DNA of 63,268 nucleotides, the filler included, from Conidiobolus incongruus B7586 (taxonomy: Eukaryota), in the NCBI GenBank assembly GCA_000697335.1. It is 6 parts of 6 records of this genome, joined end to end, with 100 filler letters (N's around TTAATTAATTAA, not from the genome) between each part and the next. Parts side by side here need not be neighbours in the genome. Positions count along the whole stretch, not along the records: positions 1 to 28,085 come from JNEM01006394.1; positions 28,186 to 40,876 come from JNEM01006395.1; 4 more parts are not named here. One strand, 5' to 3'. Both the position numbers and the translations under genes were made by a program. Below the pieces are notes generated by a model. The model made no database searches. It saw nothing but the letters and a program-made list of their open reading frames with translations, and had not been told where the DNA came from. Positions 4,760 to 38,096 of this stretch are shown here, piece by piece (positions within the stretch are counted from its first letter, which is position 1; the number at the start of each line of letters is the position of its first letter).

Positions 4760-4768
4760 TTATGGGAT
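4760..4768 (-). promoter_or_regulatory. ATCCCATAA upstream element (DCD1)
   Basis: Exact motif in the sense orientation about 150 bp upstream of the ATG; recurs upstream of five other genes. Confidence 0.6.
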
Positions 4769-5047
4769 TAAAAACAAATCAAGAGTTTGAATTACTATAT
4801 TTAATCAGTTGCAATAGTTACTAAAATGCTATGTTTTAAAAAACAGATATAATGAATCTAATATAAATAATGATTTTCAAAATATTGGCTGAAACGATAA
4901 TTTAATTAATATCAATTCAATTATTTAATGAATTTACTTATTTTACATTCTAATATATCAGGTAGACATCTTTGTTATTACAACAATCTATGTTAAACTG
5001 CTATCTTTATATATTATAAAATATCAAAATGAATGATATTTATTAGA

Positions 5048-6589
5048 TTAATGACAATCAGCATGGTAAGGAATGAATTTCTTAGTTTGAGGGTAATAAG
5101 TCCTATGAAAAGGAGGTAAAAATCCTAATTTTGCATCATGGAATTTCAAATGTAAATTGCATTTGGCACATTTTTCATTAAATATGGTATAGTATGAGAA
5201 GACCCAATGCTAATATTAGAGTTAATCAGTGATGTATTAATGATATATAATTAACGAAATTACCAAGAATGGCTCTAAAGCATCGTGATTGGAATCCGAA
5301 TATTCAAATACATCAATAAATGAAGGCATTGGAATGTGTTTCATACTCAATTCAGATAGTTTTCGTAATACTCCAAACTCGGAAGGCTCATTGAATTTAT
5401 GCTAATATCATAATTTAAATAATGTGAAATAATATAATATATTCAATGAATTTACATGTTCGTGGAATCCGTAAAATATACATTTGGAGATTAGAATTGG
5501 TGAAGTACTGGATTCGTGTTTAATATAAACTTTAATCTTTAAAATATGCTCTAAATATATCTAGTATACTATTTTAATAAAAATAATATTAGCTAGAGTA
5601 TATTATATATTACCACAAAGTATCCATATTCTTTCTCATTTAAATTAGGCTCTAATTCGAATTGATGATAGCATTTCGATTTATTTAACTCTCTAAATCT
5701 ATCTAATCGAACATCGATAGTTTCCACTTTTTTACTAGAAAATCATTAGTAAATATATTGCTTGAATAATCAAAACACCAACTTTGGATTAAATGGAATA
5801 GGATCTATTATCAATCGAAATTTATTGGGATGATTATTGTTATAATCATTTAGTAATCTATTAAATTATTCTATTAATACATTATTATTTTATATAATAT
5901 ATCATAATTACTGTAATGATTTATCAATACTCTGTCTAATTCTAGAAACTGAAGAATGAAAGAGAGTTTCATTTTCTTTATTTATTTCACCAAAACTAAA
6001 TTGAAATAAATATTAAATATTAATTATATTCATATAAACTAAAATTACTCTGATTTGGCAGAATTTTTTACTTCATTTTCCAATTTATTTATTGCACCTG
6101 AAGCTACTCTATTTTGAACTTCCATTAATAAATCTAATAATTAAATTATGTTAATCTATTGTGTAATATACAAGAATAAATTATTACCTGAATGATTATA
6201 AATATCTGATTTAAACTGCTGAAATTTAATAAATATTAAATTCAATTCTTCACTAAATTGATTAACTATAATTGGTATTAATATAGGTTATATTAAAAAT
6301 ATTATAAAGCATATATACTTTGATTTTCATTCATATTAAATTTAGATAGATTTTCAAATAAATCATTAATACTAATTCTAAAATTCTGTAAATTAAAAAT
6401 TAATTTAGATACGTTTTCAATATCGGCTTTAAGTTTCTCTTTTTTAAGTGCTATCTTCTGATCATTATTAATTAAACTCTCTTCAGTTGTTAATTCCGCA
6501 TTATTGTTAGGTAGGTTTCCATTGGTTTGGTCGTTAGTATCTTGGTTGATGTCGTCATTATTTGGTTTGGAATTGTTGTTATTGGACAT
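5048..6589 (-). CDS. MED27: Mediator complex subunit 27, multi-exon
   Basis: Last exon HWVFSYYTIFNEKCAKCNLHLKFHDAKLGFLPPFHRTYYPQTKKFIPYHADCH* matches the Med27 C-terminal W..SY..LF...C..C...L....LPP..R.......H..C motif. Upstream exon IYGFHE/PSEFGVLRKLSE and an N-terminal coiled-coil exon. Internal exon boundaries not all resolved. Confidence 0.8.
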
Positions 6590-6663
6590 TTTTTCTTAAA
6601 TTTGATGTATTATAATTTATGAATGTGACTTAATTTTATCCTAAATAATATGATTCAGAAAAA

Positions 6664-6672
6664 TTATGGGAT
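6664..6672 (-). promoter_or_regulatory. ATCCCATAA upstream element (MED27)
   Basis: Exact motif in the sense orientation about 75 bp upstream of the ATG. Confidence 0.6.
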
Positions 6673-7171
6673 TATTAAGATGAGTTTTCGTTCATATTAT
6701 ATTGCAGAGATCAATAAAAATCCTAATATATTTAGTATATATTTTTCTTTTAATTTTATATGAATAGCTATAACTTTTTATGATTTTCACTGTTAGATAT
6801 TGTATTTTAATTCTATATTACATTATTTTAAATCAAAACTGAAAACCAGATCAACAAAAAATTCTATCCCATAAGAATATTTATCTCAATATTATTATAA
6901 ATTTAGTCTGAAGTCTGACAAAACAATCAATGAAATTAATCCTATTGTGAATATTCCAATAAATCTACCATTATGAATTTCATCATTGTTCAAATTAAAA
7001 ATAATCTCAATTTAAATAGTATAAAAATTCAGGACGGTTAATTCAGAATAAATTTCAAATTAGGAATGAAGTATTGGATATAATTATTAAATGTTAGTAC
7101 AAAAGTAATAATTGATTATTTATTTATTTTAATAATCATTCATAAGGAATTATAAAATATTCTATTCATAT

Positions 7172-35038: not shown

Positions 35039-35557
35039 ATGTTAGGTAAAGAAGACGAAGAGAGAGTCCAATTTCAAGTTAACTTAGTCAAAGTAACCAG
35101 TGAAAATATAATGAAGTTAAAGAGGTTAAACAGTTTATTATTTCCTGTAACATACGGTGAAAAGTTTTATAAAAGACTATTAAATTTGGAGAGTGAAGCT
35201 TATTTAGCTTATTGGGACGAGAAATGTATTGGAGCGGTTTGTTTTCGAAAGGAAGTCATCCCTACAGATCTCGATATTAAGGAAGAAGAGAGAAAATATC
35301 AACTATATATTATGACACTCGGGGTTTTGTCAGTTTATCGTCAGAGTGGTGTAGGCTCTGCGCTCTTGGACAAAGTGCTGGAGGCGGGGATGGAGGACCC
35401 TTCAGTGACGGGTGTGAATTTACACGTACAAGTGAATAACCAAGTAGCAATAGATTTTTATAAAAAATTCGGGTTTATAATATCGCATATTTGTCATAAT
35501 TATTATATTAGGTTGGATCCTGCTGATGCTTATGTATTATATAAAAAATTAAATTAG
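35039..35557 (+). CDS. NAA50: N-terminal acetyltransferase NatE catalytic subunit (Naa50/Nat5/San-like GNAT)
   Basis: LFPVTY..KFY, YIMTLGVL..YR..GVGS, LHVQVNN..AI.FYKKFGF, YY.RL.P.DA; intronless ORF. Confidence 0.85.
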   Translation: MLGKEDEERVQFQVNLVKVTSENIMKLKRLNSLLFPVTYGEKFYKRLLNLESEAYLAYWDEKCIGAVCFRKEVIPTDLDIKEEERKYQLYIMTLGVLSVYRQSGVGSALLDKVLEAGMEDPSVTGVNLHVQVNNQVAIDFYKKFGFIISHICHNYYIRLDPADAYVLYKKLN

Positions 35558-37007
35558 TCTGCTTTTTTATTTTAAATTAGTTATTTGATATGTATTATTC
35601 AATTTATTGGGAATATAATTTCTTTATTTTTCAACTTATTCATATTAAAATTTAATTTGATAAATAATCAGATTTTCCTGAAAATAAACAAAAATAGGTG
35701 TTATTGGTAGTATTTTGTCTAGATATGTTCATTAATTTAGATCATTAAATAATCTAACAATATAAGCACCAATTAATAATATTATTTCATTAATGAGTAT
35801 ATAATTTGAAAAATATTTTTAATACTCAATTTGTGATAACTAATAATTCTCTGTATTGTTTTTAGCTGATTATAGTTAAAGTATTTTCATCATATTATAA
35901 CTATTGATTTTAGAGTATAAGGAATGTTATAATTTCAACCAATTGACAATATTGAAATATTGATCAAAAATTTAGATTTCCAGTGATCTATTTTATTAAG
36001 TCGCTAAAATTATTAAATATTTTTAATTTTTATATTAATCACCAAGTTTTACAATAATGATATTTGTAATCAACTATTCGAAATTTAATTAACTTCAGGT
36101 ATTTTCACCAAATGATATATAAAATGTTGCTTTGGGTTGTCTCTTTTTTGTTTATTTCAGGCTATATAATAGAATTTTGAATTACAATATACATAATAAA
36201 TATTAAGTATTTCAATAATAAAAATACTTGGAATTAGACTGATTGCAAAACTAACAGCGTATTTCAATAAAAAATTTAGTTTGAAATCTATCATAAACAT
36301 ATAAATGTCACACCTGCAACAACTTGACTACAACCAACACCACTTATAAAAGGAAATGGTTCTTGGCCATAAGATTTGTTTGAACCCTTTACAACCATCT
36401 AAGCTCAACTCAATTCAATTAGCTATCACAATTCATTCTCCTACTATTATAGATATTTATACACCAATAAAACTCGAACAAACATCAGTTGTTAGTATTA
36501 TGAATATACTAATATCAAAAACATCATGAATACAGTGCAACTCATTAATGTACCCTAACAGCCATGCAGTTGCAATTTAGCAATTCTGTTGGCTAGTCAA
36601 CTAGTAGAGCATTCACCATTAATAATAAGTAGTTTAATCCCAGTTATTGTGACCCAAATTATTTGGAATATCCATATAATCACTTTTAATCAGTTCTTTA
36701 CTACTACAATAAATATGAATTCAATGGTATTTTGGAATAAAACATTATGATATAAAACTTCTTAATAAAAACTTAAGTATTACACTGTATCGATGTTTTT
36801 GATTTTACCAAAGCTTTGGTTTCATTTTCATAACTTCAGTAAGTATTAATTAAAATTAACCTAATCAGAATAAAAATAACAAATTTTTAATATCTTATGA
36901 ATATTGAACAGGAAACTTATTAGTTAAATTAACTATTTTATCACAAATATTATATTCCTTATGAAGAATTGCTTTTCTTTAATTTATTGATTGAATATTA
37001 AATCGAA

Positions 37008-37402
37008 ATGGCTAGGTCATATTCACAGAAAGTAAGAATAAACAAGGAAGCAAGTAACTACTTTCCGAAGTTGATAAAGCCAAGCAACAAGACCCAAAGC
37101 CACAACTTCCAGAAACTAAAAATGCTGTAAAACTAGCTCAGAAGGAGAAGCGAAGCAAACTTTAGAAACAGGAGCGAAAGGCTGAGAAGTCGCCAAGAAG
37201 GAACAGGCTTCCGAATTGGGTGTTACTGGATAACAAGCAAGTAATAAACATGCTAATAAAACTAAAAAGGCTAAAACAACAAAATCAACTACCTATTTAC
37301 GATTCTACAAAGATTAATCAAGTGCAAAAATATGATGAATCTGAAAACAAAACTAAAAGCCATGTCAAATTACAGGGACAAAAGCCTGAATCAACTCAAT
37401 AG
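37008..37402 (+). pseudogene. Degraded Lys/Glu-rich coding fragment of unknown origin
   Basis: Purine-rich coding-like composition (EVDKAKQQDPKPQLPETKNAVKLAQKEKRSKL*KQERKAEK) with stops and frameshifts; no family assigned. Confidence 0.3.
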
Positions 37403-38087
37403 GCTAACTATTTCGACATACCAATCTTTAAAACACCACATAAATTGATTGATATTATTCAAATTTTCAAAGATTTAAATCTTCAAATCGATTAGGCTGT
37501 CAATTTGTAAGATAATTACTCAAAATAAGTAATCATAATAAACATGTATTATTCATATAACTATAATATCTTATATTTTTATTTAAATGTTGAAGATTCA
37601 TTTAATTGCTAATATAATTTCACAAAATTTCAATTTTTGTTGATAATTCATGAAAGTTTGAAGATTTATTTGTAAAAAAGCTTTAAAATTAATTTTAACA
37701 TTAATATTAATTATATAAAGATTATTTAAATTGCCAATCATGATTCTGTTCAAATTCTCACATTTTATAAGTTTATTCGTATAATTTTAAATGTTATTAA
37801 TTTAGTATTATAAATTATTAATATTATATAATTAATTAACAATGTATTATTAGCTGTTTAGTGATTTTACTAATGTTGATAATTATTTGTTAAAAATGTT
37901 ATGAAATAGCTGATTGAGAATACATTAAAGGTGCAAGAATAATTTCATATATGTAGTGCTATTGAAATTTTGAGTACGATTTTTCTATTAAGTTTTATGA
38001 AAATCTGTTTAAATTACAAAAATTTTCAATTATAATTTTGTTATTTGATAGTCTCAATCATATTTTAAAGGATTGATTAATTCAACA

Positions 38088-38096
38088 ATCCCATAA
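38088..38096 (+). promoter_or_regulatory. ATCCCATAA upstream element (HAS1)
   Basis: Exact motif in the sense orientation about 115 bp upstream of the ATG. Confidence 0.6.

Follow-up and report, generated by a model that had tools for sequence, protein, structure and literature searches.

Fungal promoter rules derive mostly from yeasts and moulds. Short, lineage-restricted and often oriented sites just upstream of housekeeping promoters are known for the yeast factors Reb1, Abf1, Rap1 and Tbf1, as the Homol boxes of fission yeast, and as the DRE and M1BP sites of Drosophila. A further point of comparison is ZNF143 (Staf), an animal protein. The parts of one report available to us describe ZNF143 as a promoter-binding protein that favors a position about 70 bp ahead of the start site and is enriched at bidirectional promoters, and RBPJ as binding TTCCCA-containing sites (PMC3627581). 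As for the CSL family (RBP-J/Su(H) and the fission yeast proteins Cbf11 and Cbf12), the available parts of two papers report CSL genes in zygomycetes, e.g., Rhizopus and Phycomyces (PMC3155561), and binding of Cbf11 to a near-canonical site at seven lipid genes (PMC4569565). Here, we describe a nine-base word, ATCCCATAA, that lies upstream of housekeeping genes in a stretch of 63,268 nucleotides (nt) from Conidiobolus incongruus B7586 (the window, meaning the whole stretch analyzed). In its general character, the word would be like the yeast, fission yeast and Drosophila sites.

All statistics on ATCCCATAA were computed within this one window. Seven exact copies were found when both strands were counted, beginning at 4760, 6664, 6866, 14588, 18064, 29293 and 38088, in agreement with an earlier note on this DNA, which had counted seven and named the places of six. 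That note had expected about 0.5 matches, a figure that falls between the 0.38 expected when the 40,926 non-coding bases are described by a Markov-3 model and the 1.37 given by the mean of 100 dinucleotide shuffles of the whole window, none of which reached seven. All seven copies lie in non-coding sequence, and among the 448 words composed of CCC plus six A/T bases, ATCCCATAA alone has seven non-coding matches; the next three words, with four matches each, are overlaps of ATCCCATAA itself. A de novo search took in every 7- to 10-mer of the 300-nt regions before 15 genes, among them a GDSL-like gene whose start is uncertain, with the exclusion of two expansin copies that have their starts in gaps and of one inverted expansin fragment. 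The top word was again ATCCCATAA, present in 6 of the 15 upstream regions with a log10 p of -13.5. The best word of 15 random real non-coding tiles reached at most -6.9, and the best word of simulated upstream DNA reached at most -7.7 (0/300 in each of these look-elsewhere nulls). Six of the seven copies fall in sense upstream windows, which account for 5.5% of the strand positions in non-coding DNA (p = 2e-7, uncorrected for the choice of word). The consensus of the sites is A-W-C-C-C-A-Y-A-A, which was also searched as WWCCCAYAA and had no match in the 300 nt after 12 stop codons. When aligned, the sites have these nine bases in common and flanks without any common sequence, and no repeat family of at least 40 nt covers them; thus, the sites are not repeat remnants. 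These results confirm that the enrichment of ATCCCATAA is real and not due to chance.

The word was also distributed unevenly between classes of genes. WWCCCAYAA preceded 8 of 10 housekeeping genes and none of 5 other genes (Fisher p = 0.007), and exact ATCCCATAA preceded 6 of 10 and 0 of 5, respectively (p = 0.044), with the classes having been assigned after the data were seen. The five other genes are the GDSL-like gene, DGAT2 and three expansins that are paralogous, in keeping with the earlier observation that the word is not found before the expansin or DGAT2 genes. The motif-bearing genes serve nucleotide metabolism, Mediator, RNA polymerase III, ATP synthase, mismatch repair and ribosome biogenesis, and targets of such unrelated function fit a general factor. 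Enrichment just upstream of functionally unrelated housekeeping genes, a trait of the sites of general regulatory factors, was seen within this window only. Sites mostly occur once per promoter. The strand bias in upstream windows was 6:1 for the exact word (p = 0.06) and 8:1 when one-mismatch copies were included (p = 0.02), and orientation taken alone was weakly supported. Within the window, the earlier description of a positioned element before housekeeping genes was supported, and the element was mostly oriented. The earlier note had additionally contrasted TATA-less housekeeping genes with expansins that use TATA-like boxes instead. This contrast was not supported: TATAWAWR, for which the background is 0.79 matches in 200 nt, occurred within 200 nt at one of the three expansins tested, at DGAT2 and at three of the ten housekeeping genes, and it is uninformative at this AT content. 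Three other identities for the word were rejected, namely, a TATA-box variant (the base following CATAA varies), MADS or EBF palindromes (a check by eye shows no second half) and an N6-methyladenine (6mA) signal (each ApT is missing from one or another variant). The parts of PMC11258239 available to us give no 6mA value for Conidiobolus.

To locate each site relative to its gene, start codons were placed by hand using translations, and gaps were counted from the end of the motif to the ATG. The earlier note had placed six exact copies on the sense strand before DCD1, MED27, RPC34, ATP16, MSH6 and HAS1, and all six were recovered at 74 to 197 nt. On the minus strand, 4760..4768 is 148 nt before the ATG of DCD1 (dCMP deaminase) at 4611, 6664..6672 is 74 nt before that of MED27 at 6589, 14588..14596 is 110 nt before that of RPC34 at 14477, and 18064..18072 is 97 nt before that of ATP16 at 17966. 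On the plus strand, 29293..29301 is 197 nt before the ATG of MSH6 at 29499, and 38088..38096 is 115 nt before that of HAS1 at 38212. Two variants differ from the word by one mismatch. The first, AACCCATAA, at 34889..34897 (+), lies 141 nt before the ATG at 35039 of an NAA50-like GNAT gene, where a variant had been noted before. The second, ATCCCACAA, at 12279..12287 (-), is present before ADE3 as claimed but lies 298 nt from the ATG at 11980, beyond the 75 to 200 nt that had been given. A weaker variant, ATCCCACTC, at 20389..20397 (+), lies 145 nt before the ATG at 20543 of a DUF2415 WD40 gene and was absent from the earlier list. The variant previously listed for the gene with its ATG at 40327, GAACCATAA at 40190..40198 (+), 128 nt before that ATG, is weak and doubtful, as it differs at three of nine positions. 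Pfam backs the families of DCD1, ADE3, RPC34, ATP16, MSH6, HAS1, DGAT2, the expansins and MED27, in agreement with the names assigned earlier; the NAA50-like gene is backed as a GNAT acetyltransferase only.

Some 190 nt separate the seventh exact copy, at 6866..6874 (+), from the MED27 site, and this copy is directed away from MED27. It may serve MED27 as a second, reversed site or else drive an unseen transcript. On the strand downstream of this copy, up to a long terminal repeat (LTR), only open frames of fewer than 40 codons occur and no gene was found, and Rfam gave no match in the window and none at 6600-8700 with E <= 1. The LTR, at 7172-7506, is likely a solo LTR of 335 bp with a TG start, near-inverted ends and an ATAT target duplication. 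Its summed contig depth is about 10,000, versus tens elsewhere, and it retains CpGs, in contrast to the decayed elements of the window.

Because 5' leaders tend to avoid upstream ATGs, we used upstream ATGs as a proxy for leader extent in the eight genes with the consensus. In these genes, the first 70 nt past the motif hold 11 ATGs (8.9 expected), and the remaining 620 nt hold none (9.8 expected; p = 5e-5, although the loss is less extreme than this value because the cut was post hoc and other G-containing triplets are depleted). The 11 ATGs sit in five of the eight genes, the other three having no ATG between motif and start, and the last upstream ATG falls 18 to 66 nt after the motif. In ADE3, the final 241 nt ahead of the ATG are likewise free of ATGs. 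The presence of ATGs at the background rate just past the motif and their subsequent disappearance imply that the motif and the next bases likely lie outside the mRNA. By this proxy, the motif likely precedes the transcription start in the five genes with such ATGs at least. A motif-anchored boundary fit the ten sites slightly better than an ATG-anchored one (24/500 permutations), and no second element at a fixed distance from the motif was found among the aligned sites. The upstream-ATG pattern does not, as it stands, establish a fixed distance between motif and start.

Conservation could be assessed at two genes. In the source sample, these genes are present in a further copy at a depth of about 1:1 (runs X1 to X4, which are four runs from one sample and not independent, over window positions 3500-23400 and 17920-18190), with close exons, diverged introns and many indels in the ADE3 introns. 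The two gene copies are those of a hybrid, a heterokaryon or a duplicated genome. For ATP16, the second copy shows no difference across 17937-18042 and differences at 18043, 18044, 18047 and 18049; its alignment continues past the motif as far as 18083, beyond which the sequences are unrelated, and this puts the end of homology 11 nt upstream of the motif. The ATP16 motif is within a block common to both genome copies (18013-18083), and the four listed differences are all outside the motif. Given that this is a single case and that further differences were not placed, conservation at ATP16 is suggestive only. Before HAS1, WWCCCAYAA was found on neither strand in up to 800 nt preceding the match at 68 loci from other eukaryotes, none of them from Conidiobolus (49 with the full 800 nt; the stretches include some coding sequence). 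Of the 80 metagenome HAS1 loci, 13 were removed because their flanks were too short, and two bacterial-like loci from the prokaryote contigs were unused. Contigs from metagenomes (80 loci, up to 82% identity), prokaryote genomes (3 loci) and viruses (0 loci) contained no Conidiobolus locus, and neither HAS1 nor one expansin had an exact match in the collection consulted. The absence of the word before HAS1 at these unrelated eukaryote loci agrees with the earlier suggestion of a lineage-specific site.

Taken together, we consider ATCCCATAA to be probably a site bound by a single sequence-specific protein that acts as a general activator of housekeeping genes, situated a few tens of bases before the transcription start. 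The word, its enrichment, its position, its strand bias and its gene classes were observed directly, and the steps that might follow from them can be outlined. A single protein would bind the asymmetric site in one orientation, would keep the very AT-rich promoter open and would recruit the RNA polymerase II machinery, with transcription starting roughly 20 to 70 nt or more downstream. By analogy, its mode of action may be that of the yeast general regulatory factors or of ZNF143. As candidate binders, we would rank a C2H2 zinc-finger protein first, followed by a Myb-type, diverged CSL or homeodomain protein.

Several points weigh against this interpretation. The evidence comes from one window, 10 housekeeping genes and hand-placed ATGs, and two of these ten genes have weak variants only. 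The copy at 6866 is directed at no gene, and were it a reversed MED27 site, strict orientation would be weakened. The 70-nt cut was set once the data had been inspected; with the cut at 50 nt, p is 0.016. Beyond 70 nt, five other G-containing triplets are also low, at about a quarter to 70% of expectation (TGA, 7 versus 16.5; GAT, 7 versus 13.4; GTA, 2 versus 7.8; AGT, 3 versus 8.3; TAG, 7 versus 9.8). At the six exact sites, a motif-anchored boundary fits no better than an ATG-anchored one. Finally, two of six ATP16 differences are unlisted, lie near the alignment end and could hit the CCC core.

The same observations bear on other explanations. The word could be a core-promoter element that the basal machinery recognizes by way of a TFIID subunit or of an initiation factor specific to the lineage; such an element would stand at a rigid distance from the start and replace TATA. 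A near-invariant word, present once per promoter at most housekeeping genes here with a strong sense bias, is what such an element would look like, and the slight preference for a motif-anchored leader boundary points the same way. However, the position of the last upstream ATG varies by tens of nucleotides, no second element keeps a fixed distance and the TATA contrast was not seen; none of these excludes a rigid distance, and we regard this explanation as rather unlikely. The word could instead be the site of a regulated factor that controls a growth or proliferation regulon, rather than of a constitutive general factor. HAS1, RPC34, DCD1, ADE3, MSH6 and ATP16 are growth-related by their established functions, and the secreted and lipid genes lack the motif. 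Nevertheless, MED27 and the GNAT gene carry it too, and 8 of 10 neighboring housekeeping genes would be a high share for a single regulon, so that a regulon appears clearly improbable.

If the word acted as an RNA element, AUCCCAUAA, bound in 5' leaders by an RNA-binding protein, this on its own would account for strict strandedness. The sense-strand bias, the plausible leader lengths of 74 to 197 nt and the three genes without an ATG between motif and start are consistent with this, but leaders normally avoid ATGs, and those found within 70 nt past the motif in the other five genes occur at background density, which makes an RNA element very unlikely. As the word was chosen post hoc from one AT-rich window, chance or the remains of dispersed repeats must also be weighed; with neither look-elsewhere null producing an equal, the word unique among the 448 examined and no flanks or repeat family in common, this is hardly credible. 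The binding site of a general activator thus remains the interpretation that we prefer.

The window DNA is very AT-rich and fungal, and its genes have introns. The window's HAS1 shares 98% identity, across 80% of its length, with HAS1 of Conidiobolus coronatus NRRL 28638, and therefore the host is a Conidiobolus near C. coronatus; identity to protein P0001 is 91% over the full length. Runs X5 to X7, which bear the same species label as the source, have almost no words in common with it and match mostly in short coding pieces of less than 90% identity, and the label therefore spans very different genomes.

Elsewhere in the window, a signature resembling repeat-induced point mutation (RIP) was seen at 41000-46900 and also at 1-600 and 61500-63268. 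The RIP-like region has no CpG in 5.9 kb, a TpA/ApT ratio of about 1.2 and a (CA+TG)/(AC+GT) ratio of 0.5 to 0.58, versus 0.85 to 0.9 and about 1.5, respectively, in two ordinary intergenic stretches. Its part at 42 to 46 kb, which by eye resembles what we take to be a decayed Ty3 pol and has no Pfam match in three frames, has direct repeats of 82 to 84% at its ends. According to the available parts of PMC11105155, observations of RIP are limited to Dikarya, and RIP-like indices are reported for Zoophthora radicans; those parts give no RIP value for Conidiobolus. The segment 47073-58772 carries a cluster of no fewer than five expansin-like copies, of which some contain stops. Within this cluster, 47073-47481 duplicates 50334-50742 in inverted orientation at 99%, and 52642-52941 matches 56821-57120 at 99%; both duplicates adjoin gaps and are therefore possibly in part assembly artefacts. 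Pairs of N runs at about 28086-28186, 40877-40976, 46973-47072, 52542-52641 and 58773-58872 flank an identical short AT linker, which is a gap marker and not biology. Two short open frames on the minus strand, at 60239-60484 and 60894-61094, have no Pfam match and resemble a decayed gene. The first, of 81 codons, contains TACCCATAA at 60450-60458 (-), which was dropped as incidental.

In a search that was largely blind to subscription papers, we found no description of a promoter element for Conidiobolus or of this word, and a literature search on core promoters of early-diverging fungi gave no description of such an element. A telomere-repeat paper for this fungal group did not turn up in the titles searched either. 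Apparently, the word is a promoter element that belongs to a known kind but has gone undescribed, in a lineage for which we found no promoter rules in print. To our knowledge, its share of 8 in 10 would, if it extended to the whole genome, seem above that of any one yeast factor. Should the word prove to stand at most housekeeping genes, it would serve as a start-site marker for annotating very AT-rich genomes, as bait for a likely essential transcription factor and as a direct test of the turnover of general activators between fungal lineages. A bolder proposal, which we offer tentatively and consider doubtful, is that a single dominant 9-bp element of fixed orientation determines both the direction and the start site of transcription at most housekeeping genes of Conidiobolus and its allies. 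It would be read by a factor new to the role (e.g., a CSL protein put to a new use or a ZNF143 counterpart in fungi), and the design would differ from that of the yeasts and moulds examined so far.

Lastly, we compared the word with the known sites themselves. The sequences bound by yeast Reb1, Abf1, Rap1 and Tbf1, the fission yeast Homol boxes and the Drosophila DRE and M1BP sites all differ from it. The CSL element has a TCCCA core in common with the word. Against the CSL consensus CGTGGGAA, as given in the available parts of PMC8494340, the exact word matches at five of eight positions, two variants match at six and the NAA50 variant matches at four, so that the full consensus is not reached. 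The canonical CSL 7-mer GTG(G/A)GAA has two non-coding matches in the window, neither at these sites. Furthermore, Cbf11 targets are lipid genes and, unlike those of the word, not housekeeping genes in general. No mention of CSL in Conidiobolus was found in the available parts of PMC3155561 or PMC5415576, and no CSL-like peptide was found in the window or in 83 loci. The earlier note had remarked on a resemblance to the ZNF143/Staf site that might be coincidence. This resemblance holds for the first nine bases of SBS1 (5' half like TTCCCAT), which the exact word matches at seven of nine positions and the variants match at six of nine. It fails for the GC-rich second half of the 18-bp site, where 10 of 10 Conidiobolus sites match at zero to three of nine positions. 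By analogy, the word would work like a ZNF143 site yet is a different site.

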